Positions 26,412 to 58,943 of a stretch of DNA of 64,000 nt are shown piece after piece. Made by a program: the position numbers and the translations under genes. Below the pieces are notes generated by a model that saw nothing but the letters and a program-made list of their open reading frames with translations, was not told the DNA's origin and searched no databases. Each line of letters starts with the position of its first letter. Positions within the stretch are counted from its first letter, which is position 1. Source of the DNA: an uncultured Candidatus Saccharibacteria bacterium (GTDB lineage Bacteria; Patescibacteriota; Saccharimonadia; Saccharimonadales; 2-12-FULL-41-12); the NCBI GenBank assembly GCA_947085855.1, contig CAMTYB010000001.1, forward strand, positions 341,788 through 405,787, in the 5' to 3' direction.

Positions 26412-26951
26412 ATGACCCCTCCAGAATTTGAGTTAGAGCAAGCTACACGGCGCGTAACAATTGATGTGCCCGATAGAGTCATGTCAACATTTATGGCGCA
26501 GCTCGGCGAACTGGCTGCGGCCCATGATCTGCCTGTAGCGGTAGATGATACTCAAAGCGATCTTGTACACTACAATAAAAATCTCACTACCCCTGTTCAG
26601 GTTTACGATTTGCTACTAGGCCGACGCACCGATGAACAAGTTTTGGCCGTCACACGAGCCAACCTTAGAGAATTTGCGCCTACCATAGGGTTTAGCTCAA
26701 ATCTGGGCTCGATGGCCTTTCGGGGAGTCTCTGAATACATGGTGAATATCCAACAATACAAGGACTGCATTGTTGCGACCGAGAAACCAGGCAGAGATCA
26801 CCCATTAAATTGCTGGGGTATTCGAGCTGCCAAGATGCCTCGAGTTATGGAAGCTTTGGAAAATACGACTGAGTTCCGCAGGCAATTAACGCCCAGACAA
26901 TTCGAGGTATTCTCTGGATTTCACCAGGCGTTATTTGCAACCTCGACTTAG
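26412..26951 (+). CDS. hypothetical protein
   Basis: 179-aa ORF, no motif recognised. Confidence 0.55.
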   Translation: MTPPEFELEQATRRVTIDVPDRVMSTFMAQLGELAAAHDLPVAVDDTQSDLVHYNKNLTTPVQVYDLLLGRRTDEQVLAVTRANLREFAPTIGFSSNLGSMAFRGVSEYMVNIQQYKDCIVATEKPGRDHPLNCWGIRAAKMPRVMEALENTTEFRRQLTPRQFEVFSGFHQALFATST

Positions 26952-26961
26952 GAGTCAGCCC

Positions 26962-27528: not shown

Positions 27529-27556
27529 AGTTCTCTTTTTCTACCCCTGTTACTAA

Positions 27557-28813: not shown

Positions 28814-28905
28814 ATACGAGTGTAATAAACATCGCTGCGCTTATGCTTGCATCTTAACTATGCTTTGTAGAGAATACACTATGTATATATGACAGGAGTT
28901 TACAC

Positions 28906-30075: not shown

Positions 30076-30133
30076 AATCTGTGTAAAAGTGGTTTGGCTT
30101 TGTGGGAAGTAAGCTATACTTGTCATAAAGCTA

Positions 30134-35454: not shown

Positions 35455-35487
35455 GGCACACTACCCCTGTTACCGGACTAGTGTGCC
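35455..35487. repeat. solo GGCACACTA...TAGTGTGCC hairpin overlapping the tatC stop codon
   Basis: 9-bp stem (35455-35463 pairs with 35479-35487). Same GGCACAC/GTGTGCC core as the MITE-like family. Confidence 0.45.
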
Positions 35488-37559: not shown

Positions 37560-37697
37560 GGCACCAAGTGCACCAAGCGTTTCAACTGACAGCTGATCAG
37601 CCAAATAGATATACCCAACACCGATAGCCAGCAGCGCCAACAATAACATTGTCACGAGCCACCGCTGTAGCATTTGTTTACGAGCTCTATGTCTCAT
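37548..37697 (-). CDS. small membrane protein (49 aa), translationally coupled to sortase
   Basis: Its ATG overlaps the sortase TGA (ATGA). Translates MRHRARKQMLQRWLVTMLLLALLAIGVGYIYLADQL... with one TM segment. Below the track cutoff. Confidence 0.35.
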   Translation of the reverse strand: MRHRARKQMLQRWLVTMLLLALLAIGVGYIYLADQLSVETLGALGAGRY

Positions 37698-38284
37698 GGC
37701 GTGTCTCCTGTCGGCTTAGCAATAATCACTAGTCGATCTTTTGGATTCCAAACCGGTGTACAGGTATACAGGGTTAGCTGGGCAGTATCGGTTGGCGCTT
37801 CAACTTCTTTGTTGTCGGCTTTGACCACCTTGGTTTCGGCAACCTGATAATAATAAGCCTTGCCATGCCAATAAACTGCAAAAGTATCGCCAATCTTTAA
37901 CTTATCGAGGTTATAGAAGACTGCTTTGCTGCGATACGTAAAACGGTGGCCAGCGATGACGGTATTACCCTCATCTAGAGGCGTACTGGTGTACGGTTTG
38001 CGCCATGGACCATCGTTTACCGTTGTTTCGGCCTTACCCTCTCGGATTGCTTCATCGACGAAGATTTGAGGAATAACCAGGCGATTGTCTTTTGGAATGT
38101 CATTAGGTGGTGTAGTTTTAGTGGCTGCTCCCGTTACATAGGCAGGTTGACTCGGCGGAAATTTTTTCTGGAGATGAAATGATAAGAATGGCCAAGCCGT
38201 ATATATCAGAATACCTATCCCTAGTACTAAAACGAGGACGGTAAGGACGGTATTAAGCCGGTCATGCCATTGAGCTGCTGACAC
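37694..38284 (-). CDS. sortase (class E-like)
   Basis: 196 aa with an N-terminal TM segment, catalytic His (IAGHRFTY) and LTLYTCTP (TLxTC). Confidence 0.85.
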   Translation of the reverse strand: MSAAQWHDRLNTVLTVLVLVLGIGILIYTAWPFLSFHLQKKFPPSQPAYVTGAATKTTPPNDIPKDNRLVIPQIFVDEAIREGKAETTVNDGPWRKPYTSTPLDEGNTVIAGHRFTYRSKAVFYNLDKLKIGDTFAVYWHGKAYYYQVAETKVVKADNKEVEAPTDTAQLTLYTCTPVWNPKDRLVIIAKPTGDTP

Positions 38285-43064: not shown

Positions 43065-43158
43065 AAGTTTTGCAATCCTTTACTTGATTCAGTGCTCTAC
43101 AATTCTGCCTTATTCTAACAGATCAGCGAAGATGAATCTATTTCTGGCTTGCGGCTGC

Positions 43159-45447
43159 CTAGGAGTTCACTGCATATAGAGCGATATCGAGAATAAGACT
43201 TGCATCGGTAGGCAATGCAATGTAATTTTGAATGCGCGGTGCTACCGATGTTTTTGAGGAGATCGTGAACGGTGCTGAGGATTCCTGGTCAGAGATAGCT
43301 CCAGCGGCAACAATCGGAGAGCCTGAGTTCCATAAACCACCTGTTGAACCTGTAACCGTACCGCTATAGGTAGCCGATGGATCCGTACCGCTAGCACCGC
43401 CACTTATTGCGTTCACATTCACCAATACTACGCCTAGACCCCCGGTAGAAATCGCCACACCACCATTCTTGAGCGTCACGGCTAGTATGAACTGCGTAGT
43501 CTTACCTGAGACAGCGTAATCAGCCGGATCAACTACTTCAACTGCCCGAGCCGAGCCGGCCGCGCCAAAAGCCACCGCATATGGCGCAAATGTGTCTGCG
43601 GGGGTTCGATCAACTCCAGACGCCTGTGTATTAGTAGCATCGAGTCGAGTAATCCAACGCCTAACAAGCCGGCGACGTGAGACAAGGTCAGAAGGTAGGC
43701 GCGCCACCGAAAGTGTGCCTGTAGTAAGCTCGCTGGCATTCGTAGTTTTGGTACTGCCAGCATTGCCTATATAGCCAGGATTTTGGCGTGCACGATGGAG
43801 AGCAAGACGCTGTATTTCATCACGAATTTTACGAGCAATAGCCCCTTGCCCGCCGTTTCCAAGGTAATCAGAGCCCGGCAATGGACGGCTTATAGCGGCT
43901 GATGGATGTGAGGAATCCGTCCAGGTTAAAGTGTCGGATGGCCCAGAGCCATTGGTGGCACCTTGGTAACCCGTTCCATATGTATCACCATCTTGTAAAA
44001 GAGAACGAATGTATTGAATATTCATCTGAGGATGTGCGTCAATATAGCCTTTTATTTGAGCGTTGATTACTTCGTACTCACTATTCCAAGTTTCTGTACG
44101 AGTATGCATAAGGCCTGTAGCGAAAAGTGGGACGCTTGGGAATCGATCGTATAGCCCACCGAGCACTGCCGCAATAGAGTTATCTAAGGTAACAGTGCCG
44201 TCGAATTCACCGGAACGGTCATTCTGCGACCCAAGAACTACTACAGCATCTGGTGGATGAGTGTCATCAAAGTACCTATCCACGTCATATGGAATTCTCT
44301 GTTCATAGTTGAGTAAGGTAGATTCAACGACAGGCCCAAACGACACAAAGCCTTTGGCACGATAGCCAGTGCCACCTTGTCCGGATAAGTGAACGTCCAT
44401 ACCAAGTGCTCGTCCCAACATTGGCACAAAACCAAGCGTATGTCGGTATTGGCCTTGCCCTGGAACGGTAAACGAATCACCGAGCAGCAGCAGCTTGCCT
44501 GCTCGCCAGTTTGGATAAGATAGTTGATCTGTCGACAAGAAGTAGAATCCACCAAAAGTAGCAGACTCGGTGTACATCTTGATTTGCCAATCGCCCGATG
44601 ACCCAAGATCAATCGGGACAAGATAATACAGACCATCACCAGGAGATGTAAATATTTCTTGTCCATTTTGACTCGACAACGCCCGAAACGGACGCATAGT
44701 AGCACCATCTTTACCGGCAAAGTACTCAATGTACTGGGTACCACTTGTATCTCGCATTACCTGGACCAGGTAGCGACCCCTGAAACGAAAAGAGATTTCT
44801 CCGTATGATCCAGTCATGCCGCCACCATCTGGCGTAGCGTCAGTACGAGCAGTTTGGAATTGGCCTACCTGTTGAGAAGTGGCTGTGGAGCCACCCCAAT
44901 AATTAAACGGCCCCGAAAGCCGATAAGTAGTATCGTTTTTCGGATCAGCATAGTCTGGTTGGGTCCGCGTAAGATTAGCAGATGTATATGACCCACCTGA
45001 CATAGTATTCATAAGTGTGGCAGCAGCTGTAGGCATTGTTCCTGTTGATAGCCCTGTGGAGCGAGTACCTATAGTTAGCCCAGAGATAACCGTGTCTGTC
45101 AGAAGATCTTGTAATGAAGCTCCTCCAAACACTGATTGAATACCAGGAATGTCTCTTTTCTGATAATCGGCTAGCTGGTCTTCGTCCACTAAACCGCTCG
45201 GTAACTGGCTTGTGTCTAGCGTGCTAGACCCATCAAGGGTAGCTATACCAGAAGGAACCCCTTTTTGACTTGCTGGGATTGCATTATCGGCCGCAGTCAA
45301 GCTTGCTTGCACCGAACTGTCGAGTTTGGCCTTGGCAATTACGCCATCTTTGAGCGAGCCATCGTTATTATGAACTTGATTGAGAAAATCATTAAGAATT
45401 GAACCCCAATTTCCCGGATCACCGCCAACTGTCGGTAGACGAGCCAT
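43159..45447 (-). CDS. phage-tail-fibre-like surface protein with SGNH/GDSL hydrolase domain
   Basis: 762 aa. N-terminal MARLPTVGGDPGNWGSILNDFLNQVHNNDGSLK is paralogous to 24182-26374. Also ATLDGSSTLDTSQLPSG, and GDS block LLLLGDSFT with a later VVVLGSQND. Confidence 0.8.
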   Translation of the reverse strand: MARLPTVGGDPGNWGSILNDFLNQVHNNDGSLKDGVIAKAKLDSSVQASLTAADNAIPASQKGVPSGIATLDGSSTLDTSQLPSGLVDEDQLADYQKRDIPGIQSVFGGASLQDLLTDTVISGLTIGTRSTGLSTGTMPTAAATLMNTMSGGSYTSANLTRTQPDYADPKNDTTYRLSGPFNYWGGSTATSQQVGQFQTARTDATPDGGGMTGSYGEISFRFRGRYLVQVMRDTSGTQYIEYFAGKDGATMRPFRALSSQNGQEIFTSPGDGLYYLVPIDLGSSGDWQIKMYTESATFGGFYFLSTDQLSYPNWRAGKLLLLGDSFTVPGQGQYRHTLGFVPMLGRALGMDVHLSGQGGTGYRAKGFVSFGPVVESTLLNYEQRIPYDVDRYFDDTHPPDAVVVLGSQNDRSGEFDGTVTLDNSIAAVLGGLYDRFPSVPLFATGLMHTRTETWNSEYEVINAQIKGYIDAHPQMNIQYIRSLLQDGDTYGTGYQGATNGSGPSDTLTWTDSSHPSAAISRPLPGSDYLGNGGQGAIARKIRDEIQRLALHRARQNPGYIGNAGSTKTTNASELTTGTLSVARLPSDLVSRRRLVRRWITRLDATNTQASGVDRTPADTFAPYAVAFGAAGSARAVEVVDPADYAVSGKTTQFILAVTLKNGGVAISTGGLGVVLVNVNAISGGASGTDPSATYSGTVTGSTGGLWNSGSPIVAAGAISDQESSAPFTISSKTSVAPRIQNYIALPTDASLILDIALYAVNS

Positions 45448-45571
45448 AACTACAATACCCCGCGCAACAAAATTCTCATGCTTGTACGTATTATCGAGAA
45501 AACTAAGTTAAAAATCAATTGGGCTTTGTTTGTTTGCTCAGTCAACACAATAACGAGACATCTTAAAAACT

Positions 45572-46507: not shown

Positions 46508-47599
46508 CTACTGGAAGTAAGTGGCGCCGCCACAGTCGTTGGCTACGCCGTAGCCAGAGTAGACATCGAGACGCTTACATATACCATTCATGGATTCAAA
46601 GCCAGGAGGTGTTACTTCTTGAGGATAGAACGGTATGCGTACTTGCATACGGCGCATAACATCGCTCACTTTACCGGTTGAATCAATTTTGATTTGAGCT
46701 TCTTTGAAGCGAACGTTTTGATTCGATGCATCCCTACCTTCAATAGTAAGCGCCGAGTTGCTATAGATTGACGTAACCTTTACAAACAAACCATTAGCCG
46801 GCGGCAAACCCTGAATTGTAGCTCGGCATTTACCCGAGGAGCAGTCTGCTGCTGCCACAAAGCCTTCGTTCTCGCTACTACTGGCGTGGCGTGAGTAATT
46901 AACAAGTCCCGGACCAGTATCCCGCGTTGGGCGTAGAAATACTGTAAATTGATCCTCAGCTAAGCGCTCTCTGCTGATAGCACCGTTGGTAACCGGCATA
47001 AAACTGAGTCTCAAAATACCCGCGTCGCAGTTGTTGGAATAGGTTGGCTGAGTCGGGTAATTATGTATCGAAGCTATTGCCTCGCAGCCACCAAAATTCT
47101 GACCACCATCGATGTCATTCCATTCAACTATTACAGACCGTGGTGGCACATCGGTTGTTGTCTGCAATGATAGCAGTTCTCCTCGATAGCCATCTATTGA
47201 GCTGTACTCAAGTGTCTTTGGCGCTCGGTCAAATAGTACACAAATTTCCTGGAAAGTTGCGCTCGTATCGAGTTGAGCGGCGATAACGGGTGCTGCTGAG
47301 CAGGTTTCTTTTTTGTAGTCTGCGGCGACAATAGCCGCTAAATTGTCTGGGTTACGCAGGTACTTAGTGGCATCATTGATGCCTGATTCGGCCACATAGA
47401 AGGCTTGATTGGACAGCTGTCGATCGAGGGTTTGGCGTTGTTCTCGCCGACTTATTTCGGCAAAAGCCAGGACCGTTAGCGAGATGATTACTAAAAGAAA
47501 AACCGTTACCATAATAGCGGCCAGTCCAGATTCATTTGTACGGAGTTGTTTTAAGTTTTTCATACAAACTCTTTTATGCTTAATTTTAGTATACCTCAT
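46508..47599 (-). CDS. PilX-like minor pilin / pilus-assembly protein
   Basis: 363 aa. ESGLAAIMVTVFLLVIISLTVLAF matches the PilX N-terminal pattern. Likely start is the ATG at 47563 (MKNLKQL). Confidence 0.65.
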   Translation of the reverse strand: MRYTKIKHKRVCMKNLKQLRTNESGLAAIMVTVFLLVIISLTVLAFAEISRREQRQTLDRQLSNQAFYVAESGINDATKYLRNPDNLAAIVAADYKKETCSAAPVIAAQLDTSATFQEICVLFDRAPKTLEYSSIDGYRGELLSLQTTTDVPPRSVIVEWNDIDGGQNFGGCEAIASIHNYPTQPTYSNNCDAGILRLSFMPVTNGAISRERLAEDQFTVFLRPTRDTGPGLVNYSRHASSSENEGFVAAADCSSGKCRATIQGLPPANGLFVKVTSIYSNSALTIEGRDASNQNVRFKEAQIKIDSTGKVSDVMRRMQVRIPFYPQEVTPPGFESMNGICKRLDVYSGYGVANDCGGATYFQ

Positions 47600-48270
47600 A
47601 AGCGTTTTTTGACCGTCGTATTTAGTGAGCTAACGGCACAGAAACTGCCGCCGAGACTATTTGGCACGCAGACATTGCCTGGACTAATGTCCAAGTCTCC
47701 GTACACAACGGTGAGAGTGAAACTCAGGAATGTTCTATTTGGCGATTCGGTAAAGGTCAGGTTTGCCAAACGAGCATTTTGCGGCAGTAACTCCCGCCGC
47801 TGAGCAATAGCCTCGGCTGAAGTATTAGTGTTAGCGTCTTGCGGCACGGGGTTATTGAGGTCGAGTGGCGCACAGGTGGCACCATTATTTATCAGATCAA
47901 GCCAGAGAGCATGCGGTGTTGTTACAGTATCGAGATCACTCGTGCCACGGACTGGCACCCCTATCGTATAGGTAAATCGATAATTACCAATACAGGTGGC
48001 TGAGACCTGCAGACCGCTAAAGCCAACTGGCCCCTGAGTTGTAACACCGCTCGAACTATTAAACTGATACGCATTACTAATATCTTTAGTTATAGACCGA
48101 GTAACTTCTTGTGTCTTGCCGCTAATAATCCCCTTGTAGTACGCCCGGCCAATATACAGTAATCCGGTCGTAGCAATGAGAATAATGGTACTAAACACCA
48201 AAGTAGAGATCAGTAGCTCTACAAGCGTAAAGCCGGCCTGCTGTTTGGGCGTGGTCGTTTTCGTTTTCAT
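47596..48270 (-). CDS. prepilin-type minor pilin (PilW-like)
   Basis: 224 aa with a G|FTLVELLIS cleavage/methylation motif. Confidence 0.75.
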   Translation of the reverse strand: MKTKTTTPKQQAGFTLVELLISTLVFSTIILIATTGLLYIGRAYYKGIISGKTQEVTRSITKDISNAYQFNSSSGVTTQGPVGFSGLQVSATCIGNYRFTYTIGVPVRGTSDLDTVTTPHALWLDLINNGATCAPLDLNNPVPQDANTNTSAEAIAQRRELLPQNARLANLTFTESPNRTFLSFTLTVVYGDLDISPGNVCVPNSLGGSFCAVSSLNTTVKKRL

Positions 48271-49517
48271 CAGTTTCTAAAGAGCCTTACACTATCGATT
48301 TGCAGATTCGGGTCGTTACCGTTGTTATTTTGCCAAACTATGTACAAACGCTCGCCATGATCTGGTGGAATTACTACTTGCGTAGAGTGACTCATCTGCT
48401 GATCTTGGGCGCCAGCTGGTAAGGTCGGGTCGTCGCCAATAAATTGAGACGTGCTCCAATCGGTACCCGTGCGCACAATTAAGTTATAGCCTGGATAGCC
48501 AGCCGGTACAGCATTATTGAACTGACGATATGTAATCTCAAGCGTGGCTGGTCCTGGCTGTAGGCCAGGCATGTAGTATGTCACCAAGACTTCGCGCCAG
48601 GCTCGCATTGAATTTCCACTCTGGAAACATCCGTCGGCGCCATCATTCCATAGGCCTTCTGCAGCTGAACAGCCGATGTATTCACGACCAGCGGCCGTAG
48701 AACTGAAAGCTATAGCTGGATCTGGTGACTCGGTGTTGTCCTGAGCATTGGCGCAGCCTGGGTCATCTGGATAGTCTGTCCTGGTATCGCTATCATTGTC
48801 TTGTCCGTCAATACACTGCGGGTTAGTTTCATCGTTATCGGTGGCGCTGGTACAGCCCGGGTCGGCTGGATAATCAGTATGCGCGTCGCCGTCATCATTG
48901 ATACCATTTTGACATTGCTCTGGCGCCGTACCACTAACATAGAATGAATCGCTCGTGTTGTAGTAGAGGCTATAAAACGACCTGACTTCCTCAATTTCAC
49001 CACCGCCAGCTGGCAACCATCGGAGCGTGATAGCGTATGGCCGAACAGTTGGACTGGAACCAACAGCGACTGCGCGATCTGGCGACCAAATCATGACACT
49101 ATATAGATCATCGTTGGCATTATTGTCCAATCGACAGGCTGCGGGATACGCAGTCAAATCGTCGACTTCTTTATCAGCGACTGGTGGCGTAGCATCAGCC
49201 GACACAACCTGTATGCCCGTTGGTGCGGTCACTGGGTCAACTGGTACAGTCTGTAGACAGAAATAGGCATCATTGCCGGGTAGTGTCTGCACATCAGCAT
49301 ATGCCTTTAGAAGTTCAACCTGAGTCTCCAGGTATTTAGTGGCCAAAGAGCGTTCTTGGGATTTCTGGGTAGCAATGGTGCTGCGATTTGATAGTGCGTA
49401 GGCTGTGGTCAGCAGTAAGCTCAAAACAGCCGTACAGATGAGCACTTCGGCAATAGTATCGCCACGCTGACTGAGGTGTTTGATTTTACGCATTACACCA
49501 TTCATTAGGCTGCACAT
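48270..49517 (-). CDS. prepilin-type minor pilin with Cys/Asp-rich repeat domain
   Basis: 415 aa with G|DTIAEVLI. Two C..G.D.D.D..TDYP.DPGC repeats (48753-48914). Confidence 0.7.
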   Translation of the reverse strand: MCSLMNGVMRKIKHLSQRGDTIAEVLICTAVLSLLLTTAYALSNRSTIATQKSQERSLATKYLETQVELLKAYADVQTLPGNDAYFCLQTVPVDPVTAPTGIQVVSADATPPVADKEVDDLTAYPAACRLDNNANDDLYSVMIWSPDRAVAVGSSPTVRPYAITLRWLPAGGGEIEEVRSFYSLYYNTSDSFYVSGTAPEQCQNGINDDGDAHTDYPADPGCTSATDNDETNPQCIDGQDNDSDTRTDYPDDPGCANAQDNTESPDPAIAFSSTAAGREYIGCSAAEGLWNDGADGCFQSGNSMRAWREVLVTYYMPGLQPGPATLEITYRQFNNAVPAGYPGYNLIVRTGTDWSTSQFIGDDPTLPAGAQDQQMSHSTQVVIPPDHGERLYIVWQNNNGNDPNLQIDSVRLFRN

Positions 49518-50449
49518 CCTAGGGCTATAGCCTGGTCATCAAAGAAGGTTTGAGTCGACAAATTCTGGTCCGTACCTGCTGCTACAAACGACGTTGGACC
49601 ACCGCCTGGATCAAGTCGAACACCCAAACCTATAGCGGCTGAGCGGCCGCCAGGAGCGTCGCGCATACAAATAACAAGGCTGCGATAGGTATTGGCTGGG
49701 CCAACAATGTTAGCAGTAGACAACGTATCAACCGAGGCGGTCAAGTCACCGATGCCGCCGTTTAAGCCGACGTTACCACTGAGGGCGGCTAGGCTGGCTC
49801 GACCGTTAGCTAAGTTGGTTGCGGTGTTGTTGGTAGTCTGCAGGGCTACGCTCTGAACAATAGATATTTCAGGGAATGAATTTACTGTGCTATACGGGCT
49901 AAAATTAGTAACATACAACACTCTAGACACCTCTATGCCATTTCGAATTGATAGCTCTTCGATACCAGTGGTTCCGCTCGGACTATAAAATGCTCGTGGC
50001 ACTGATTCTTCAATACTAGCTGGCTGCTCGGTTTTACCGGTGGTGGGGTTAAAATCAAGTCGCTTACCGGCAATGCTAACAGCTCGAATATTAGATACGT
50101 ATCCAGACGGGTTTCGGTAGAATTGAACGGCTTTGCCTAAAAATACACATTCTTCATTGGTTCCCTGCGGTCGCGGTGTAGCCGTAACAACCGGGACTGC
50201 CGCCGGATTTGATGACATACCAGGGACAGTACAGCTAATCGAGCCGTTATTTGACGAGAAACCATTCTCGACATCGTTGATGAGGTCTTGCATACGCGAC
50301 TCTAGATCTCGTACACCGGTGGAAAACTGGGTTTGTTGCTGACGACCATTAATGAGTGTGCCGGCCGATATCAAAAGAGCGCCACTAATTGTCAGGAAAA
50401 TTAGTACCTCAAGAATAGTATATCCAGCCAAATTTTTTTGGCATTTCAT
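49505..50449 (-). CDS. prepilin-type minor pilin (FimT/GspH-like)
   Basis: 314 aa with G|YTILEVLIFL. Confidence 0.7.
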   Translation of the reverse strand: MKCQKNLAGYTILEVLIFLTISGALLISAGTLINGRQQQTQFSTGVRDLESRMQDLINDVENGFSSNNGSISCTVPGMSSNPAAVPVVTATPRPQGTNEECVFLGKAVQFYRNPSGYVSNIRAVSIAGKRLDFNPTTGKTEQPASIEESVPRAFYSPSGTTGIEELSIRNGIEVSRVLYVTNFSPYSTVNSFPEISIVQSVALQTTNNTATNLANGRASLAALSGNVGLNGGIGDLTASVDTLSTANIVGPANTYRSLVICMRDAPGGRSAAIGLGVRLDPGGGPTSFVAAGTDQNLSTQTFFDDQAIALGCAA

Positions 50450-50479
50450 ACTTCGCAGTATAGCATAAGCTCTATCTGT

Positions 50480-51316
50480 TTAAACCCCAGTAAATAGTGA
50501 TGTATACCAATCCAGCAAATCAACACCGTACAGCATGGTAATTATGCCGCCCACAATCAAAAATGGCCCGAAAGGTATCCGGCTTTTCCGGTTAAGTTTT
50601 TTGCTAGCCAACAGTGGTACCGTCAACAACGTACCGAGCAATGAAGCAATAAACAGCATGACTGCCGCCTCCAGCGGACTAAGCAAGAAGGCTCCGATCA
50701 AGAAGCCGAGTTTTACATCTCCCCCACCTATCCAGCTACCTTGCGACACCTGGAACAGCAGATAGAATATACCCCCACCAACCACAACTCCGCCTAGTGC
50801 TCCTAGTAGCGGCTGCGCGGACTGCTCAATGCCGACATTCACCAATACGAAGGCTGCAGCTACTGCGTACAGCGGGAAAATGATCCGATTTGGTAACAGC
50901 ATCCAGCGAAGATCATAGACCAACAATGCCATCAGGCCGGTCAAGCAGACCAACCACAAGCCAAATGAGGCCATTTCGAGCCCTTTTAGCTCCTCTGGCC
51001 AGGCGACATAGGAAAAGATAAACAGAGCGGCTGTGGTCAGCTCTACTGCAGGATACTGCCAACTGATTGATCCTTTACAGTAGCGGCACTTCCCGTGCAG
51101 GCTCAGCCAGCTCAAAACCGGTATCAAATCTTGTGCCCGTAGTGTGTGTCCGCAGTGCGTACAAACTGAGCGGCCTTTAGCTATAGACAGTTCCTCTGAG
51201 CTGACTTTTTTGATTCGCTTGGATGCTGGCAGAGCTTGTTGATGCAAGCGCCAGACTAAGGCGTTAACAAAGCTCCCTAAACAGAGTCCCAACAAGGTAA
51301 GTGCTGCAAAAATCAT
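50480..51316 (-). CDS. pilD: prepilin peptidase (A24 family)
   Basis: 278 aa. N-terminal GSFVNALVWRL, zinc-binding CTHCGH...CRYC, polytopic. Confidence 0.9.
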   Translation of the reverse strand: MIFAALTLLGLCLGSFVNALVWRLHQQALPASKRIKKVSSEELSIAKGRSVCTHCGHTLRAQDLIPVLSWLSLHGKCRYCKGSISWQYPAVELTTAALFIFSYVAWPEELKGLEMASFGLWLVCLTGLMALLVYDLRWMLLPNRIIFPLYAVAAAFVLVNVGIEQSAQPLLGALGGVVVGGGIFYLLFQVSQGSWIGGGDVKLGFLIGAFLLSPLEAAVMLFIASLLGTLLTVPLLASKKLNRKSRIPFGPFLIVGGIITMLYGVDLLDWYTSLFTGV

Positions 51317-51341
51317 TATGCTCTAGCTTATCACTAAACAG

Positions 51342-51371
51342 AAAAAAACGGGACTGGATTGTCCCGTTTTT
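51342..51371 (-). terminator. intrinsic terminator between pilA and pilD
   Basis: Minus strand AACGGGAC, loop AATCCA, GTCCCGTT, then TTTTTC. Lies 19 nt after the pilA stop. Confidence 0.7.
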
Positions 51372-51389
51372 CCTGATCGCCTGACCTAT

Positions 51390-51974
51390 TTAGAGGTTCT
51401 GGCAGACACCTACGAGGCCACCTTGGCGCTCTGTAGGATAGATCAACACTACAGTTCGAGGTGTAGCACCGTTAGTAGTAGCGATGTTGCCAGCGCCGTT
51501 ACCGATGGTTGTAGCTACGTTAGTAGTGTTAGTACCTGGATCACCGTATGGAGTTGCTCCGTTGTCGTTACACTTCAAGTTGTTTCGCAACAATACTTGG
51601 TCGGTACCGATGTTAGCTGGCAATGTTGCAGCTGCACCTGGGGCAACCCATGTGTAGTCAAGTCGCAATAGCTGAGTTCGGCGAACGTTCTCAATCACGT
51701 CAGGGATTGCTGTAGCAGCACCGTCTTGCGTATGAGTTACGTTAGCTTGGGTAGCTAAGTTACCGTTGTTATTGTTGATAGCTTCTTGTGTCGCACCAGC
51801 CAATGAAGCTGCATCGTTCTTACGTTGCGTGTTACGGCTGTTACGTTGGAGTGAAGGTACCGCTAGGAACACGATCAATACAATCAGACCGGCAATAGCG
51901 AGTACAATCAAGACTTCGATAATGGTGAAGCCCTTTTCTTGTTTCTTTAGTAGTGGTAATTTCATTATGATCAC
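51390..51974 (-). CDS. pilA: type IV major pilin
   Basis: 194 aa with KG|FTIIEVLIVLAIAGLIV. Own terminator and short spacing to pilC. Confidence 0.85.
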   Translation of the reverse strand: MIIMKLPLLKKQEKGFTIIEVLIVLAIAGLIVLIVFLAVPSLQRNSRNTQRKNDAASLAGATQEAINNNNGNLATQANVTHTQDGAATAIPDVIENVRRTQLLRLDYTWVAPGAAATLPANIGTDQVLLRNNLKCNDNGATPYGDPGTNTTNVATTIGNGAGNIATTNGATPRTVVLIYPTERQGGLVGVCQNL

Positions 51975-52069
51975 ACCCTCCTGTGATGCATGATTATTGT
52001 TGGTTATGCTTACATACTAGGTTAGCTTTTTGTTTATTGCAAGCAGTTTTCCCCAGTTTTGTATATCTG

Positions 52070-53302
52070 TTACTTAATAATGTCTTTACCGGCCAGGCCA
52101 TAGATCGGCAAAAGAACGGCAGCTACGATGGCAAACGCCACGATACCAAGCAGCACCATCATTAGTGGCTCGATGATAGTAGAGATGGTCTTAATCTGGT
52201 TATCAACTTCTTTTTCGTAGTAGTCAGCTGTTTTTTCGAGCATATCCTCTAAGGAACCTGATTCCTCACCAATACGAAGCATGTTTGGCACGAGTACCAG
52301 GAAGTTCGGATCTCCTTCTATGGAGTCTGAGAGTGACTTACCGCCCTTTACCTTCTCGATAGCCCTATTAACTGAGCGCTCCAGGTGTACGTTGTTAATG
52401 GACTGAGACACAACCTCAAGCATCTGGATCAGTGGCACACCGCTGGCAACCAGTGTTGTGCCAGTACGTGCAAAGCGCGCCATATAGAGCTTCATAAACA
52501 ACGGTCCAAACGGCCAGGCCTTCATCTTTAGGCCATCGATGACATCCCGACCAGGACCAGTCCGAGCATACTTAGTCACAGCAAAGCCTAAGAAGATTAA
52601 AATACCTATGACGATATACCAATAATCAGTTATGAAGTGTGATGCGGCTAACATAACCTTGGTGATGAGTGGCAGCTCAGCGCCAGGAATGTCTTTGTAG
52701 ATAACCTCTACTTGAGGCAAAACCTTTACAAGCATAAAGCCTACGACACCGATCATAACGAGGATAACAACTGCCGGATAAGCCAGGGCGCCTTTGATCT
52801 TACCCATAATTTCGGCGTCTTTTTCTTGCTGGAAGGCAATGCGCTCCAAGGCTTTGTCGAGCGTACCAGAAACTTCACCGGCTGCCATCAAGTTAATGTA
52901 GATGTTGTTAAAGACTTTGGGGTGCTTCTTTAAAGCCTCAGAGAACGAAGTTCCACCTTCGATATCGCTAATAATTTCGTTAATGACCGACTTGAGAGCT
53001 TTGTTCTCTGTTTGGTCGTTTACACTGCGCAATGACTGCACCAGTGGTAAACCGGCATTGATCAAGGTCGACATTTGGCGAGAAAAGACAATTTTCTCTT
53101 TGGTTTTAATGCGATTCTTGTACCACTCAATGGGGTTAAACTTGCCGAGTGTTCCGCTAGCACCTTCTTCTTTGATGTCAATCGGCGCCAAGCCTTGTTG
53201 CTGAATTAGCTTGGCAGCACCAGCCTCATTATCGGCCTGTAGCGTAGCTTTAATCTGTTGGCCAGTAGCTGGGTCGCGAGCGGTATATTTGTATGTAAGC
53301 AT
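52070..53302 (-). CDS. pilC: type IV pilus platform protein (GspF/PilC family)
   Basis: 410 aa with duplicated T2SS-F domains and 3 TM segments. Confidence 0.9.
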   Translation of the reverse strand: MLTYKYTARDPATGQQIKATLQADNEAGAAKLIQQQGLAPIDIKEEGASGTLGKFNPIEWYKNRIKTKEKIVFSRQMSTLINAGLPLVQSLRSVNDQTENKALKSVINEIISDIEGGTSFSEALKKHPKVFNNIYINLMAAGEVSGTLDKALERIAFQQEKDAEIMGKIKGALAYPAVVILVMIGVVGFMLVKVLPQVEVIYKDIPGAELPLITKVMLAASHFITDYWYIVIGILIFLGFAVTKYARTGPGRDVIDGLKMKAWPFGPLFMKLYMARFARTGTTLVASGVPLIQMLEVVSQSINNVHLERSVNRAIEKVKGGKSLSDSIEGDPNFLVLVPNMLRIGEESGSLEDMLEKTADYYEKEVDNQIKTISTIIEPLMMVLLGIVAFAIVAAVLLPIYGLAGKDIIK

Positions 53303-53324
53303 GTTTGTTCTCTTTAGTTTGACC

Positions 53325-54392
53325 CTATGATCTCATGAGCCGATCTAATTCATCAAGGTCAACGGCTACATTGCGAGCCTCATCATAGGTAATAGTACCA
53401 GCGTGAATCAGGTTAACAAGGGTCTTGTCCATAGACTGCATACCGTGTTCGGAGCCAGTCTGGATAACTGCCTCTAACTGGTGCGTCTTGCCTTCACGAA
53501 TAATGTTACGGACGGCTGGTGTAGCCACCATGACTTCAGCGGCAGCAATACGGCCGCCACCAATGGTTGGGATAAGGCGCTGCGAACAGATGCCCATCAA
53601 GATATTGCTCAGCTGGGCTCGAATTTGCGGCTGCTGGTGCGGCGGAAAAACGTCAATCATACGATCAATACTCTGAGCTGCACCGTTAGTGTGCAGCGTC
53701 GCAAACACCAAGTGACCGGTTTCGGCAATCGTAATTGCCGAAGCAATCGTCTCGAGGTCACGCATCTCACCAAGCAATACAACGTCCGGGTCCTGGCGCA
53801 AGCTACTACGTAAAGCTGCCGAGAATGAGAACGTGTCATAATGCACTTCTCGCTGTACGATGACTGATTTGTTGCTCTTGTGCGTAAATTCGATCGGATC
53901 TTCAATAGTCACAATGTGAACCGCTTTTTCGACGTTAATCTTATGGACTAACGCCGCCAAGGTTGTCGACTTACCAGAACCGGTTGGACCGGTTACTAAG
54001 ATAAGACCTCTCGGGTAATCAGCGAATTTAGAGATAATTGGCGGCAAACCAAGCTGTTCGAGAGTTGTGATCTCATTAGGAATTAGTCGCAAAGCGGCTG
54101 CTATATTACCTCGTTCGTGGAAAGCGTTAACACGGAAGCGGCCAAGGTCGCCAAAGGCAAAGCTAAAGTCAAATTCTTTATCTTTTAATAAGATCTGTTT
54201 TTGCTCGTCATCAAGAATAGCAAAAACGAGTGATTCGACTGATTCTTCGTTGAGTACAGTTCCGCCGGTTACAGATACCAAAGCACCGTCAACACGCAGC
54301 ATTGGTGGCAGGCCAACTTGCAAGTGCAAGTCAGAGGCTTTCTTTTTTATAACTTCTTCTAAAAGTGTTTCTATTCGTATGTGTGCTGTCAC
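53325..54392 (-). CDS. pilT: twitching-motility retraction ATPase PilT
   Basis: 355 aa, Walker A GPTGSGKST, His box and PilT-type C-terminus. Confidence 0.9.
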   Translation of the reverse strand: MTAHIRIETLLEEVIKKKASDLHLQVGLPPMLRVDGALVSVTGGTVLNEESVESLVFAILDDEQKQILLKDKEFDFSFAFGDLGRFRVNAFHERGNIAAALRLIPNEITTLEQLGLPPIISKFADYPRGLILVTGPTGSGKSTTLAALVHKINVEKAVHIVTIEDPIEFTHKSNKSVIVQREVHYDTFSFSAALRSSLRQDPDVVLLGEMRDLETIASAITIAETGHLVFATLHTNGAAQSIDRMIDVFPPHQQPQIRAQLSNILMGICSQRLIPTIGGGRIAAAEVMVATPAVRNIIREGKTHQLEAVIQTGSEHGMQSMDKTLVNLIHAGTITYDEARNVAVDLDELDRLMRS

Positions 54393-54418
54393 GGTGGTGC
54401 CCTTTATTTCCCCTCTGG

Positions 54419-56251
54419 TTACGCGCTATCAGCGGCGGCGACGCGATTAACTTCGCTTACGGTGGTATACCCTGCTAACGCCTTAAAGTAGCCGTCTTCG
54501 CGCATGGTCACCATGCCTTGCTCTTGAGCAGCTCGCTGGATCTCGGCACTGGTTGCTCGCTTGAGAATCAGTTGCTGAATGGCCTCATCGATTTCAAAAA
54601 CTTCGTAGAGGCCCATTCTACCCTTATAACCAGCTGGCGTTTCCCGGGTATCCTTACCCTTGTACAAAGTATAAGCATTTTGACCAGTCAGTGGCAAGCT
54701 TTCGTAGCCAAAATCTTCGGCTGCTGCTGCCATCTCTTCTTTTGTTTTGGGCAAGAATTTACCAATATTATCAATTATGGCCTCTGTTTCGGGCACCGTA
54801 GCGTCGTACGTCTCTTTGTTTTCAGCCACACGCCGAACCAAGCGCTGACCAATAACCGTTCGCACGGTAGAGGCAATCAAGAATGGCTCGATGCCCATAT
54901 CCAGTAAGCGCGGCAAAATACCGGCAGCGGAGTTAGTGTGCAGCGTACTAAATACCAAGTGACCAGTTAAGGCTGCCTGTACTGCTAATTGGGCAGTTTC
55001 TTTGTCACGAATCTCACCGACCATAACCACGTCTGGGTCCTGACGCAAGATCGAGCGAAGACCAGAAGCAAATGTCAGGCCGACTTCGGTATTAACCTGT
55101 ATCTGATTAATGCCGTCCATCTTGTACTCGACCGGGTCTTCCAAGGTAACAATGTTGATAGTGTCGCTCTTAACTTCATTTAACAGCGCGTACATAGAGG
55201 TGGATTTACCTGATCCGGTCGGGCCAGAGGTTAAAATCATACCGTTTGGATTTTCGATACCGCGTCGAATTGTTCGCAGTGCGCGTCCGTGGTAGCCCAT
55301 GTCTTCTAGGCGCAGGCTTGTGCCGCTCTTGTCTAGCAGACGAATAACAACCTGTTCACCCCATACAACTGGCGAGATAGCAATACGAAGATCGATTGCC
55401 TTGTCACCCACTGCTACGGTAAACTGACCGTCTTGAGGAATACGATGTTCGTCAATCTTTAGGTTACTTAAAATCTTGATACGAGATATAAGGGGTGGTT
55501 CGATGCTCTTTGGCAACTTCATAATTTCCCGCAACACACCGTCAATTCGACAACGAATCTTGAGTTCCTTTTCTAATGGTTCAATATGGATGTCACTGGC
55601 ACGACTCTTGGCCGCATAATCAAGAATGGTAGACAGTGCCTTACTGATTGGTGAGTCTTGCACAATGGTTGTAATGTTTTTGTGCTCAGGACCGGCTGGG
55701 ACTGCCACTGTGCCATCGGCTGCTTTTTCGCCAGGTTGCACGCCAGCAACAGATTGATAGTCGCTATCAACGTGGGCGCCGATAGTTTTAGCAACATCAG
55801 CTTCAACGTCTTCACTGTACTGCTCAAGAACCTTGCGAATGCCTGCTTCGCTCGCGGTATACACTTTGAGCTCGCGACCAATTCGGTTAGACAAGAAGTC
55901 GACCGCCTGAACGTTATCAGCGTCAAGCATGGCCACGACTAACTTATGCTGGATCTGGCCCAATGGTACCGCCATGTAGCGCTCGGCAACTTCTTTTGAT
56001 ATAAGGCGCAGTATTTCTTTGTCGATATGCGCATCCAGCAGGTTCACATAGGGTACGTGGTTGATCTTAGCCGTGACTTTAGTTAAGACTTCGTTAGAGA
56101 CCTTGCCTTCTTCCACGAGCATACCAAAGAAAGGCTTAGCGTCTTTCTCTGCCTTTTCCTTGATACTCTCAAGTTCGTTTTGCTGCACATAGCCTTCAGC
56201 GACGAGCATTTGCTCGACTTGCTTTTGGTTGGCAGCCGATAGGATACTCAC
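54419..56251 (-). CDS. pilB: type IV pilus extension ATPase (GspE/PilB family)
   Basis: 610 aa, N-terminal GSPII_E_N-like domain and Walker A GPTGSGKST. No tetracysteine zinc motif noticed by eye. Confidence 0.9.
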   Translation of the reverse strand: MSILSAANQKQVEQMLVAEGYVQQNELESIKEKAEKDAKPFFGMLVEEGKVSNEVLTKVTAKINHVPYVNLLDAHIDKEILRLISKEVAERYMAVPLGQIQHKLVVAMLDADNVQAVDFLSNRIGRELKVYTASEAGIRKVLEQYSEDVEADVAKTIGAHVDSDYQSVAGVQPGEKAADGTVAVPAGPEHKNITTIVQDSPISKALSTILDYAAKSRASDIHIEPLEKELKIRCRIDGVLREIMKLPKSIEPPLISRIKILSNLKIDEHRIPQDGQFTVAVGDKAIDLRIAISPVVWGEQVVIRLLDKSGTSLRLEDMGYHGRALRTIRRGIENPNGMILTSGPTGSGKSTSMYALLNEVKSDTINIVTLEDPVEYKMDGINQIQVNTEVGLTFASGLRSILRQDPDVVMVGEIRDKETAQLAVQAALTGHLVFSTLHTNSAAGILPRLLDMGIEPFLIASTVRTVIGQRLVRRVAENKETYDATVPETEAIIDNIGKFLPKTKEEMAAAAEDFGYESLPLTGQNAYTLYKGKDTRETPAGYKGRMGLYEVFEIDEAIQQLILKRATSAEIQRAAQEQGMVTMREDGYFKALAGYTTVSEVNRVAAADSA

Positions 56252-56263
56252 GTACCGAGGCTC

Positions 56264-56500
56264 CTAGAATGGGTTCGCGTTAGAACCGTTACCGATTTCG
56301 ATAAGTTGGGTTGGGTTGATCGCGTTATTATTGAAGACTTTATTATCCGGCTGTTGGAACTCAGACTTGATTGGTTCAACAATCTGCGCCGATAGCTCCT
56401 TGTTTTTCTTTGGCACAAAGAACTGTTGTGTTAGTACTATCGAGATAACTCCACCGATAGCAGCTACAATCAAGATGAGGGCAATATCTTTTTGTTTCAT
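56264..56500 (-). CDS. small single-pass membrane protein in the pilus operon
   Basis: 78 aa, positioned between pilO-like and pilB. Confidence 0.55.
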   Translation of the reverse strand: MKQKDIALILIVAAIGGVISIVLTQQFFVPKKNKELSAQIVEPIKSEFQQPDNKVFNNNAINPTQLIEIGNGSNANPF

Positions 56501-56501
56501 A

Positions 56502-57173
56502 TTATTTCTTCTTCACCGTTTCGGTTTTAATATCAAATTTCATTGGTGGCTGGAAATAGGTCTTAGCATCAACAGTAATTTTTAGCGAGCCTGGATCACC
56601 AGTAATCGTCAGTTTTTTAACCTGCATTGGTCGAATGGAGCGTTCAAAGGTTTGCAAAATTGGCTTTATCGAGCCAGCCGTGCCGTTAACAAGTACTGTG
56701 TACGGTACGTCAATCGGCTGTGGTGCCGCACTGGCCGTGGCAGCTCCTTGAGCAAGTTCATCGTCAGTTCCAGTTATGGCTTCTACGTTATAGTCCTTGA
56801 GCATTTTGTTCAGACTGGTAGTTAACGCCGGGAAGTCATACTTACTTGGCAATGCATCCAGTATAATTCGCGGGTTTTCACCGTCTTTATCGCCCGTACC
56901 CTTAGCATTGCCTCCCAGCACGTTTGTTTGGCTGTCGGCAAAGGTCTGGTAAGCCGTCTTGAGCTTGTTAACTTCTTCTACGTTTTTCTCGAGCTGGTCA
57001 CGAGCCTTTTTCTTCTTATCGATAACTTCGGCTTGGTATGACTGCTGCTTGATCAGTGAGTTAGAAGCTACAATTGAGAAAATTATGAGAATTGAAGCCA
57101 GGCCAACAGCGATAACAATGGTTGTGTTGTCTTTGTCGATAGCGAGCTGCTTGAGCGAAAGTTGCTTACCCAT
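56502..57173 (-). CDS. pilO: PilO-like pilus assembly protein
   Basis: 223 aa with an N-terminal TM segment, a coiled coil and a ferredoxin-like C-terminus. Follows pilN, with start/stop overlap. Confidence 0.6.
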   Translation of the reverse strand: MGKQLSLKQLAIDKDNTTIVIAVGLASILIIFSIVASNSLIKQQSYQAEVIDKKKKARDQLEKNVEEVNKLKTAYQTFADSQTNVLGGNAKGTGDKDGENPRIILDALPSKYDFPALTTSLNKMLKDYNVEAITGTDDELAQGAATASAAPQPIDVPYTVLVNGTAGSIKPILQTFERSIRPMQVKKLTITGDPGSLKITVDAKTYFQPPMKFDIKTETVKKK

Positions 57174-57910
57174 TACTGCACTCCCCCTTCTGGTTTAACT
57201 TCAGGAGCCGGTACAAATAGCTGGTTTGGTTTTTCGGTGGCAGATCGGGTTGAGGTAATGCTTGGAACTGTCAAGATAACTTGCGGCGAGTTCTCTGGTG
57301 CATCTTTGACCTGAGTAAAGATAGCCGGGTCAAAATTAAAGCTCAGTTCATACGTCAGCTGCTCACCTTGAGAGCTCTTGATGGTAAAGTTAGTGAGCAC
57401 CACGCTACTAAAGGCCTTGCCAGTTCGCTTACCAGACTGACTATCAATCGTAAAATCAGTAAACTTTAGCGTATCGGCAAACTTGTTGATGGTCACGAGA
57501 TTGTCGGCCGTTCCACTCAATTTCATGTTATTGCCTTCAAAATCTACTCCGACATCGGATATGCTAGCCTGATTTGGTGTGATTTGCGTCAAGAAGTCGA
57601 TCAATCGCGAGCTAATTACCTTTTTGTCATGTAGTTCAGGTAGTTTGTTGAGCTGATTTTGAATCGTCAGAATTTTATCGAGATCATTAACTTCTTGAAT
57701 CTTAGCCGTACTATCCTTGATCTCGCTATCTAGATTGCTGATATGTCGCGTCTGGTTAACGCGCACGAATAGGAACAAGAGGAGAAATATCGCCAAACAA
57801 ACACCGCTCGCAATAATACAGACAAAGACTATCAAACGCTTACGATTGCGCGTCTTTATGTAGTCAATTTTAACGTCTGGTAAGAGGTTAAACTGAATCA
57901 TATTATTCAT
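57173..57910 (-). CDS. pilN: PilN-like pilus assembly protein
   Basis: 245 aa, IQFNLLPD followed by a TM segment. Confidence 0.75.
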   Translation of the reverse strand: MNNMIQFNLLPDVKIDYIKTRNRKRLIVFVCIIASGVCLAIFLLLFLFVRVNQTRHISNLDSEIKDSTAKIQEVNDLDKILTIQNQLNKLPELHDKKVISSRLIDFLTQITPNQASISDVGVDFEGNNMKLSGTADNLVTINKFADTLKFTDFTIDSQSGKRTGKAFSSVVLTNFTIKSSQGEQLTYELSFNFDPAIFTQVKDAPENSPQVILTVPSITSTRSATEKPNQLFVPAPEVKPEGGVQ

Positions 57911-58943
57911 CCCTCTCCGCTAGACCAACGGCCACACCAAAGTGGTTAGACAAAGCCATCAACTCATTTTGTCGCTCTAGACCATACTGGACGTTGCGCC
58001 AGGCGTTACCAATTTCAACATTAATGCCAAACCGATTAGCAATGTGCAGCGGAAACTCTGGCAAAGCCGAGGCACCACCGGTCATCACAATCCGTTCAAT
58101 CTTAGTGTTGTTGTAGCGCGTTTGGAAGAATTTAATCGACTTATCGATGTCGTTCATCAACAGATCAATCGTACCAACGATAGCATGATACACTTGGCCC
58201 TCCAGCTTCTGCTGGCTCAAACCAAATTTAAAGACAAACTCCTGGGCCTGCTTTTCATCAATACTCAAATTCTGCTGAGCTGCCCGGATAATTGCCTCTG
58301 AACCAGTTGCCACAGCACGTGTGAGGCGCGGAACACCGCCCATAGTAATGACAATGTCGGTGCTCTTGCTACCAATGTCGATAACCATCTGTGGAGCTGC
58401 TGCCTCCAACGGTGTCATGGCTCGAACTAAGGCTAGATTATCTGGTTCAAATGAAATAACGTTGAGACCAATTGACTCTAGCAAATCGAGTCGCTCTTCG
58501 ACGAAGCTATTTGGCACACTTGAGAGCAGGATCTCAACTTTATTAGGGTCTTTTGGCGAGTCACCAAGCAAAGCCCAATCAATCTTTGATTCAGCTAGTG
58601 GCGTCGGTATCAGTGAATCAGCCTGGAATCGAATCGTTTTAGCTAGTTCATTCTGATCAAGTCGCTCGATATCGACGACTGCCGTAAAGACACGCGATGA
58701 CGGTATGCCAACAGCAACATTCTTAGTATTAATCTGAGCCTGCGCCAACATATCTTTGATGGCATTGGCCACCTTCTGCTGATCGGCCTTGGCATCGCTC
58801 AGCGCAATCTTGCTATCAATAGGGGCCATTGCATAGCGTAACAACTGTTTTGACTTTGGATTGTTGGTAACCTGAACAGCCCTGATGGCCGTTGTCCCTA
58901 CATCAAGTCCAAAGAATTCGGATACCCCACTCAGTAAACTCAT
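57903..58943 (-). CDS. pilM: type IV pilus assembly ATPase-fold protein PilM
   Basis: 346 aa, actin-like FGLDVGTTAIRAV and a second phosphate motif MTGGAS. Confidence 0.85.
   Translation of the reverse strand: MSLLSGVSEFFGLDVGTTAIRAVQVTNNPKSKQLLRYAMAPIDSKIALSDAKADQQKVANAIKDMLAQAQINTKNVAVGIPSSRVFTAVVDIERLDQNELAKTIRFQADSLIPTPLAESKIDWALLGDSPKDPNKVEILLSSVPNSFVEERLDLLESIGLNVISFEPDNLALVRAMTPLEAAAPQMVIDIGSKSTDIVITMGGVPRLTRAVATGSEAIIRAAQQNLSIDEKQAQEFVFKFGLSQQKLEGQVYHAIVGTIDLLMNDIDKSIKFFQTRYNNTKIERIVMTGGASALPEFPLHIANRFGINVEIGNAWRNVQYGLERQNELMALSNHFGVAVGLAERDE

Follow-up and report, generated by a model that had tools for sequence, protein, structure and literature searches.

We analyzed a 64,000-nt stretch of DNA (hereafter the window) from an uncultured Candidatus Saccharibacteria bacterium, which corresponds to positions 341,788-405,787 on the forward strand of contig CAMTYB010000001.1 of assembly GCA_947085855.1, and found that its 13-gene type IV pilus (T4P) locus is very probably the Saccharimonadales ortholog of the Saccharibacterial T4P-1, a monoderm-style type IVa pilus (T4aP) machine. 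The machine is known and ordinary for the lineage, and the 13-gene locus has already been described and genetically probed in cultivated relatives. An earlier note on this DNA had reported a complete 12.4-kb T4P locus; an open reading frame (ORF) listing over 44-62 kb and hidden Markov model (HMM) scans of the window proteins against Pfam and NCBIfam, from which the gene identities were taken, upheld all 13 ORFs with the same coordinates, gene order and identities. The lineage context, which the note regarded as a point of interest, is indeed Saccharibacterial, but it is not new: T4P-1 is known from Nanosynbacter lyticus TM7x as "T4P locus one" (TM7x_00415-00475; Grossman et al., ISME J 2025, PMC12206443) and from Southlakia epibionticum as T4P1 (SEML1_0104-0116, a 13-gene range; Wang et al., Cell 2023, PMC10633639).

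Organization, conservation and core genes of the locus

The 13 consecutive genes run along the minus strand from 58943 down to 46508, in the order pilM, pilN, pilO, a gene for a 78-aa membrane protein, pilB, pilT, pilC, pilA, pilD and four minor-pilin genes (Table 1). They are tightly packed, with junctions ranging from 13-nt overlaps to 30-nt gaps everywhere except around pilA: pilM and pilN overlap by 8 nt and pilN and pilO by 1 nt, pilO is spaced by 1 nt from the 78-aa gene, and the minor-pilin genes overlap one another by 1-13 nt, while the only real intergenic gaps are those upstream (95 nt) and downstream (73 nt) of pilA. A six-frame search of the entire window yielded only four class-III signal-peptide motifs, all of them within the locus, in PilA and in the 314-, 415- and 224-aa minor pilins. 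Annotation with HMMs of pilus proteins returned T4P identities for the core genes. Judged by sequence, the predicted proteins comprise those by which a T4aP is recognized: a PilB-type ATPase, PilT, a two-domain PilC, PilD, a class-III major pilin and PilM/N/O.

The related loci used for comparison are the best 80 of 431 PilC relatives found in a scan of one genome per species, and gene presence in them was scored by tblastn of all window proteins. The same 13 genes are present in the same order in these 80 loci wherever the contig extends. According to their titles, 66 of the 80 PilC relatives belong to Saccharibacteria, Saccharimonadales or Saccharimonadia and four to the "Patescibacteria group", nine are a generic "bacterium", and one comes from a metagenome-assembled genome (MAG) labeled Verrucomicrobiia. 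Identity to the window is ~86% for PilT, ~70% for PilB and PilM, ~66% for PilC, ~50% for PilD and ~45% for PilN, PilO and the 78-aa protein; for the minor pilins it is ~32-40% and lies mostly in the N-terminal part. The Logan contig L081, with 92% DNA identity, carries the same locus, and the identity of its proteins (95-99.7%) suggests that the locus is under purifying selection.

Both an extension and a retraction ATPase gene are present, as the earlier note had it. PilB combines T2SSE (410 bits, 6.6e-123) and MshEN (50 bits, 2.6e-13) domains, and the Walker A motif GPTGSGKST can be read in its sequence; its top NCBIfam family is TIGR02538, at 526 bits, which is below the equivalog cutoff of 675. 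Many PilB/GspE ATPases share a tetracysteine Zn-binding motif; PilB of the window has a single Cys, and the motif is therefore absent. PilT scores 479 bits with TIGR01420, above the cutoff of 319, contains the motif AVRNIIRE (AIRNLIRE type), and is 80-91% identical across the 80 related loci. PilM is likewise above its cutoff (TIGR01175, 173.5 bits vs 133), and its gene occurs, with 61-85% identity, in each of the 61 related loci that reach this far. The best match to PilC in the genome collection is 77% identical and comes from Saccharibacteria MAGs, and PilD displays the GGGD motif and CxxC...CxxC.

The remaining two members of the predicted alignment sub-complex, PilN and PilO, are recognized through their families. 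The N-terminal motif of PilN, in which residues Q6, N8, L9, L10 and P11 are nearly invariant, is presumably an INLLP-type PilM-binding peptide. Pfam PilN is matched by 24 of 26 PilN orthologs (best E 2.6e-6), and the top PDB match of the family profile is M. xanthus PilN (3jc8, E 0.013). As for PilO, PF04350 PilO is matched by 18 of 26 orthologs (best E 2.1e-7) and its homolog T2SSM by six, and the PDB sequence matches of the PilO-like protein to PilO (5uvr and 2rjz) are weak (E 1.2-1.7). When the PilN-like and PilO-like families were compared profile to profile, no signal emerged (probability 2%). Since most orthologs match despite the weak copies in the window, the PilN and PilO calls are solid at the family level, and the sequences predict that a PilM-PilN-PilO sub-complex is present.

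The ATG at 51965 is the most likely start of pilA, because AGGAGG stands 9 nt upstream of it, and the product would thus have 190 aa rather than 194. The PilA leader, MKLPLLKKQEKG/FTIIE (the slash marks the cleavage site), has Gly at -1, Phe at +1 and Glu at +5, and the N-terminal 50 aa are almost invariant among relatives. As claimed in the earlier note, pilA has its own terminator, which is the best-scoring terminator-like site of the region; a hairpin of -8 kcal/mol or lower with a T-run occurs at the equivalent place in 60 of 68 related loci, indicating that it is a conserved design feature and not a product of chance. A sigma-70 promoter scan for pilA detected none at the scan threshold; a weak TTGCAA-17-TAGTAT (52042-52014, 8/12 matches) is discernible by eye and is not counted as evidence. 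With its strong ribosome-binding site and conserved terminator, pilA appears to be a separate high-output unit nested in the gene string. Such an arrangement would yield PilA in excess over the machinery, and read-through would supply pilD and the minor pilins.

No match to the Pfam Secretin and PilP models was obtained in the locus genes or in the other window ORFs of at least 150 aa, the scan covering all of these except two nested within longer ORFs (E <= 0.001, or 0.01 or 0.1 in the case of the locus genes and their flanks). Within the 64-kb window, these scans bear out the statement of the earlier note that PilQ secretin and PilP are missing. Its suggestion of a monoderm envelope is supported by a sortase gene in the window (37694-38284), which fits a wall-anchoring, Gram-positive-like monoderm envelope; a TatC gene is found at 35478-36566. 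If there is no outer membrane, a secretin, PilP and an outer-membrane conduit would not be needed.

Table 1. Features of the pilus locus and its upstream neighbor, in the direction of transcription. Slashes mark signal-peptide cleavage sites.
Feature	Coordinates	Strand	Length (aa)	Description
1257-aa protein	59113..62886	-	1257	Signal-peptide protein, conserved neighbor directly upstream of pilM; not shown to be a machine part
pilM	57903..58943	-	346	Cytoplasmic actin-like alignment protein; PF11104 PilM_2 1.2e-40; TIGR01175
pilN	57173..57910	-	245	Bitopic membrane protein; N-terminal FNLLP motif
pilO-like	56502..57173	-	223	Transmembrane segment, coiled coil, C-terminal domain
78-aa protein (gene 4)	56264..56500	-	78	Single-pass membrane protein, between pilO and pilB
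pilB	54419..56251	-	610	Extension ATPase; length from GTG start (596 aa as called on L081)
pilT	53325..54392	-	355	Retraction ATPase; TIGR01420 PilT/PilU
pilC	52070..53302	-	410	Platform protein; PF00482 T2SSF, two stretches, 2.7e-63
pilA	51390..51974	-	194	Major prepilin; N_methyl 1.8e-7, TIGR02532
Intrinsic terminator, pilA/pilD	51342..51373	-		13-bp stem with 5 GC pairs, 6-nt loop, T7 run
pilD	50480..51316	-	278	Prepilin peptidase/N-methyltransferase; PF06750 A24_N_bact 2.3e-29, PF01478 Peptidase_A24 9.6e-13
Minor pilin 1, PilV1 position	49505..50449	-	314	Signal peptide LAG/YTILE; weak N_methyl match
Minor pilin 2, PilZ1 position	48270..49517	-	415 or 411	RG/DTIAE; three-part modular pilin
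Minor pilin 3, PilW1 position	47596..48270	-	224	Signal peptide QAG/FTLVE; N_methyl 1.2e-6, TIGR02532
Minor pilin 4, PilX1 position	46508..47599	-	363	Last gene; without Glu at +5; large beta-rich globular domain

Minor pilins and the 78-aa membrane protein

The positions of the four minor pilins are named here after the TM7x genes. The earlier note considered three of them, of 314, 415 and 363 aa, to be unusually large, which is true of the 415-aa protein (family median 164 aa), but the other two are of ordinary length for their families (medians 283 and 357 aa, respectively). Residues G9, T11 and E14 of the 314-aa pilin are invariant in 24 orthologs, and four invariant Cys are found in 25 orthologs of the 224-aa pilin. 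The 363-aa protein scores 24.0 bits with PilX_N, for which the cutoff is 25.5, and PF14341 is carried by most of the 120 best of its 561 orthologs found. Its AlphaFold2 (AF2) model, with a predicted local distance difference test score (pLDDT) of 87.3, has a long helix at the N-terminus (residues 24-82) and, behind it, a beta-rich domain; a Foldseek search of PDB with this model gave a best E of 0.024 and low TM scores, without any match to GspK or PilX.

We sought to assign the minor pilins to GspH/I/J/K or FimU/PilV/W/X by sequence, and this assignment was rejected: in all four family profiles, the alignment to PDB pilins is confined to the N-terminal pilin helix (alpha-1N), and the short forms at the PilZ1 position match N_methyl (29 of 30 orthologs in a Pfam scan) and no other family, so that the H-I-J-K mapping is only positional. 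A tip complex of minor pilins, as suggested in the earlier note, is nevertheless reasonable by analogy.

The gene at the PilZ1 position probably starts at 49505, as called on L081, yielding 411 aa. The leader of this family is a nearly invariant RG/DTIxEVLI (G/DTIxE being residues 19-24, with G, D, T and E invariant or nearly so), in which Asp takes the +1 position after the prepilin Gly. Asp is unusual at the +1 position of a prepilin cleavage/methylation site. The protein consists of a pilin module (~1-190), two acidic double-disulfide repeats (~198-262), which correspond to two stretches of the NF033662 repeat (24.8 bits), and a beta-sandwich resembling a carbohydrate-binding module (CBM; ~305-415). 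Orthologs at this position are mostly 115-190 aa long. Forms of 390-563 aa are found in the closest clade, and their C-terminal parts are mostly unlike that of the window pilin, whose acidic repeats occur in only one of these long-form loci and whose C-terminal domain occurs in only four. When 5.8 billion proteins were searched, only six relatives matched beyond the repeat region (55-99% query coverage), and ~100 further matches, many of them to unrelated extracellular proteins, were obtained only via the ~60-aa acidic double-disulfide repeat pair.

The AF2 model of the 415-aa pilin (pLDDT 59.5 overall) shows a pilin alpha-helix and beta-sheet, unstructured repeats and a C-terminal sandwich with pLDDT of 62-79. 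In PDB, Foldseek matched the sandwich to jelly-rolls of CBM4, CBM16, CBM22, MAM and Cry domain III (E 1.6e-4 to 3e-3, target TM scores no higher than ~0.5). The PilZ1-position pilin would then have gained a CBM-like jelly-roll and, in front of it, two acidic disulfide repeats of a Ca-binding-like kind. In modular type IV pilins, a pilin module is fused to a functional module (Raynaud et al. 2021, PMC8179133), and the 415-aa protein as modeled qualifies as one, being a further example and not a novel principle; the structural part of this assignment is of moderate to low confidence. If displayed at the tip, the module would be a candidate head for recognizing the host surface by binding ligands or glycans.

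The region next to this gene varies among the related loci. Between the PilZ1- and PilW1-position genes, ~560-2340 nt of extra DNA is present in the closest relatives (L001, L002, L003, L004, L005, L009, L010 and L013). In the two loci in which it was read, L002 (14851-17065) and L005 (14735-15202), this DNA codes on the opposite strand for a membrane protein of 155-177 aa, and in L002 it additionally holds a 539-aa multi-pass membrane ORF. The junction appears to be an insertion hotspot; it holds no extra DNA in the window.

All 64 related loci covering the position of the 78-aa protein gene contain it. Residues F56, N57, P63, T64 and I69 are invariant and form a conserved external motif. The family comprises 1325 clusters at 90% identity, the best 120 of which are ~78-86 aa long, none with a Pfam domain, and 615 clusters at 50% identity, the best 150 of which are stand-alone proteins of 65-109 aa. 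No PilP or other consistent match emerged from a Pfam scan of 26 orthologs, and a PDB search with the protein gave no match. We considered whether it could be a vestigial PilP or a part of a larger protein, and rejected both possibilities in view of the missing PilP match and the small, stand-alone nature of the best 150 clusters. The gene stands where TM7x_00430, left unnamed in the TM7x study, falls according to locus-tag numbering, and its slot is also the pilP place of diderm pilMNOPQ operons. The protein probably joins the PilN/PilO complex; replacement of PilP by this protein is a purely positional speculation, because it belongs to a mini-protein family with no match to PilP, Pfam or PDB.

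[quoted passage not shown] If this were true, an essential twitching pilus would carry a lineage-specific, exchangeable host-glycan-binding head that helps to set the host range.

Alternative pilus types and proposed working

The annotation does not place the locus with Com or type II secretion systems (T2SS), as PilT and PilM pass the T4P cutoffs and ComGA and ComGB stay below theirs. A Com-type pseudopilus, which would serve DNA uptake together with ComEC and ComM rather than motility or adhesion, is very unlikely. The window does contain a ComM gene, placed by the earlier note at 1079-2587 and confirmed by its Mg_chelatase/ChlI/Mg_chelatase_C architecture, but it lies 44 kb from the locus and on the opposite strand. 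Sub-threshold matches link PilB to ComGA and PilC to ComGB, and the pilin N-termini match models of ComGC to ComGF; however, the ComGA (264 bits vs a cutoff of 300) and ComGB (124.5 vs 240) scores are far below those with PilB/GspE and PilC/GspF. Moreover, the locus has PilT, above its cutoff, along with PilM, PilN and PilO, whereas ComG operons are not known to have PilT and PilM/N/O. Saccharibacteria are naturally competent, and T4P normally work with Com proteins (PMC10633639), but in Southlakia most T4P genes are class I essential and comEC is dispensable, indicating that the essential T4P role is not competence (PMC10633639). A role of the pilus in DNA uptake is possible.

Even less likely is a T2SS-like pseudopilus that exports proteins across the wall. 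The best NCBIfam E-value of PilC is with GspF (366 bits), PilB scores 504 bits with GspE, and the PilO family includes the six T2SSM-matching orthologs; the term T2SS was also used in earlier genomic papers on Saccharibacteria (PMC10633639). All Gsp equivalog scores, however, fall below their cutoffs (424 for GspF and 630 for GspE), and there are no matches to GspC, GspD, GspL or GspM beyond the shared PilM/PilO ancestry. The locus has a dedicated retraction ATPase, PilT, and T2SS are not known to have one. The TM7x counterpart is classified as T4aP by TXSScan (PMC12206443), and external pili are seen in TM7x by cryo-electron tomography.

The least credible alternative is T4P-2, the second, thin, non-retractile, host-tethering Saccharibacterial pilus, which likewise has paralogs of pilB, pilC, pilM, pilN and pilO, together with a modular, adhesin-like PilX2, and whose adhesive role might be echoed by the modular 415-aa pilin, but the T4P-2 genes of TM7x are spread over loci two to four, without pilT and pilD and beside recA/recX (PMC12206443), whereas the window locus has pilT and pilD in the exact locus-one order and no recA/recX was found adjoining it.

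As a T4P-1 machine, the locus would work as follows. PilD would cleave, and probably methylate, PilA as well as three of the minor pilins; PilB and PilT would alternately drive extension and retraction on the PilC membrane platform; and PilM would dock on the FNLLP N-terminus of PilN, with PilM/N/O, possibly joined by the 78-aa protein, forming a membrane alignment complex. By analogy with the canonical H-I-J-K/FimU-V-W-X order, in which the PilX-type pilin without Glu at +5 comes last, the four minor pilins would prime assembly and end up at the filament tip. The retractile, thicker (~3.2-3.4 nm) pilus of TM7x and its twitching have been attributed to locus one (PMC12206443), and, extending the TM7x and Southlakia experiments to the window, its pilus would be retractile, support twitching on or toward a host bacterium and be essential for epibiotic growth.

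Several points weigh against this assignment or parts of it. Orthology with T4P-1 is deduced from gene order, sizes, lineage and family HMMs rather than from a direct alignment with TM7x or Southlakia, and the proposed function is carried over to this environmental lineage from the oral Nanosynbacteraceae; the thick TM7x pilus itself is not proven to be T4P-1. The PilN of the window scores below the PF05137 cutoff (16.8 bits vs 22.8), and its PilO has no Pfam or NCBIfam HMM match of its own. The secretin-less state refers to the 64-kb window only. The GspK/PilX-like tip role of the 363-aa protein is drawn from its N-terminal segment and gene position, its globular domain being without a solved relative. 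Finally, the AF2 model of the 415-aa pilin, built on an 8-sequence alignment, is of low confidence overall, and the CBM-like call is therefore tentative.

Few of the devices by which Saccharibacteria and other CPR epibionts interact with their hosts have experimental support, and T4P are among them. Three components, all of them at the stage of hypotheses, may be regarded as candidates for studies of how hosts are recognized and how monoderm pili are built: the modular pilin with its CBM-like domain, the 78-aa protein and the giant conserved neighbor described below.

Flanking genes and comparison with known systems

Most related loci are followed by a convergent Xer-type recombinase gene and preceded by a gene for a large secreted protein. 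In the window, the latter is the 1257-aa protein, the gene of which is separated from pilM by a 169-nt gap. A core of residues ~750-1050 (~33% identity) recurs in 52-53 of the 54 matching related loci, always at this location, and the N-terminal half is variable. The protein has no Pfam, NCBIfam or PDB sequence match, and may be a pilus-associated or surface adhesin.

On the other side of the locus, between the Xer recombinase and NDK genes, a minus-strand ORF (43159-45447) codes for a 762-aa protein with a sub-threshold GDSL-lipase-like match. L081 does not have the surrounding 2.5-kb segment (43067-45569), its Xer gene abutting NDK, and just one of the 80 related loci has a homolog of the 762-aa protein; the segment looks like a strain-specific insertion beside a tyrosine recombinase. 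Two contigs of one MAG, L021 (JBBQYC010000020) and L062 (JBBQYC010000019), each contain a pilus locus that includes pilT, with all 13 pilus genes on L021 and a locus cut off on its pilN side on L062; either the bin is mixed, it would seem, or the T4P-1 locus is duplicated.

Elsewhere in the window, a plus-strand block (24182-34252) contains six ORFs (730, 179, 197, 418, 389 and 454 aa) with almost no Pfam matches. Of these, the 730-aa one shows a DUF5907 repeat below the threshold and the 197-aa one codes for a GNAT. The block is followed by a minus-strand gene for a 917-aa protein with a CBM_4_9 domain, and these products may be surface or host-interaction proteins. In a single minus-strand ORF at 4147-4815, which adjoins the RNase P RNA (3756-4113), a pterin-4a-carbinolamine dehydratase domain is joined to an RNase H/RVT_3 domain.

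With the diderm T4aP of Pseudomonas, Neisseria and Myxococcus, the locus shares the PilB, T, C, D, M, N and O core, the INLLP-type motif of PilN, four minor pilins, the last of which is without Glu at +5 and putatively of the PilX/GspK type, and a major pilin gene with its own terminator. It differs from them in having no PilQ, PilP, TsaP, PilF or PilY1 in the window, in forming one gene string, in coding for a small bitopic protein at the pilP position, and in its PilB, which lacks the tetracysteine motif. The T4aP of monoderm Firmicutes (Streptococcus sanguinis, Clostridium) are likewise secretin-less and possess PilB, T, C, D, M/N/O and several minor pilins, but belong to another phylum and have another gene order, and the Saccharibacterial locus has the 78-aa membrane protein as an extra conserved component. 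The modular pilins of S. sanguinis are tip adhesins, PilB with a von Willebrand factor A (vWA) module and PilC with a lectin module (PMC8179133). While the Firmicutes modular pilins thus carry vWA or ConA-like lectin modules, that of the window has a CBM-like jelly-roll behind acidic disulfide repeats.

The order of TM7x locus one is pilM1, pilN1, pilO1, the unnamed 00430, pilB1, pilT, pilC1, pilA1, pilD, pilV1, pilZ1, pilW1 and pilX1 (PMC12206443), with TXSScan-reported lengths, in this order, of 348/245/222/-/586/356/404/-/289/246/-/232/380 aa (supplementary Table S3, PMC12206443). The window locus comes from the same phylum, has the same gene order with a small gene at position 4 and with pilT and pilD inside the locus, and its protein sizes (Table 1) are within ~12% of those in TM7x, with the exception of the PilV1 position (314 vs 246 aa). 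In both, the last pilin is PilX-like, has no canonical PilD site and ends in a beta-rich C-terminal domain. The T4P1 gene range of Southlakia is equal in number (13). TM7x locus one is conserved across Saccharibacteria, and its targeted pilins could not be deleted (PMC12206443). The window differs from both systems in its lineage, which is one of environmental Saccharimonadales, and in its PilZ1-position pilin, which has 415 aa with added modules as opposed to ~150 aa in most relatives. The 13-gene T4P-1 blueprint of the oral isolates is therefore intact in environmental Saccharimonadales and does not represent a new kind of machine, its variation being located in the minor pilins and, above all, in the PilZ1-position gene.

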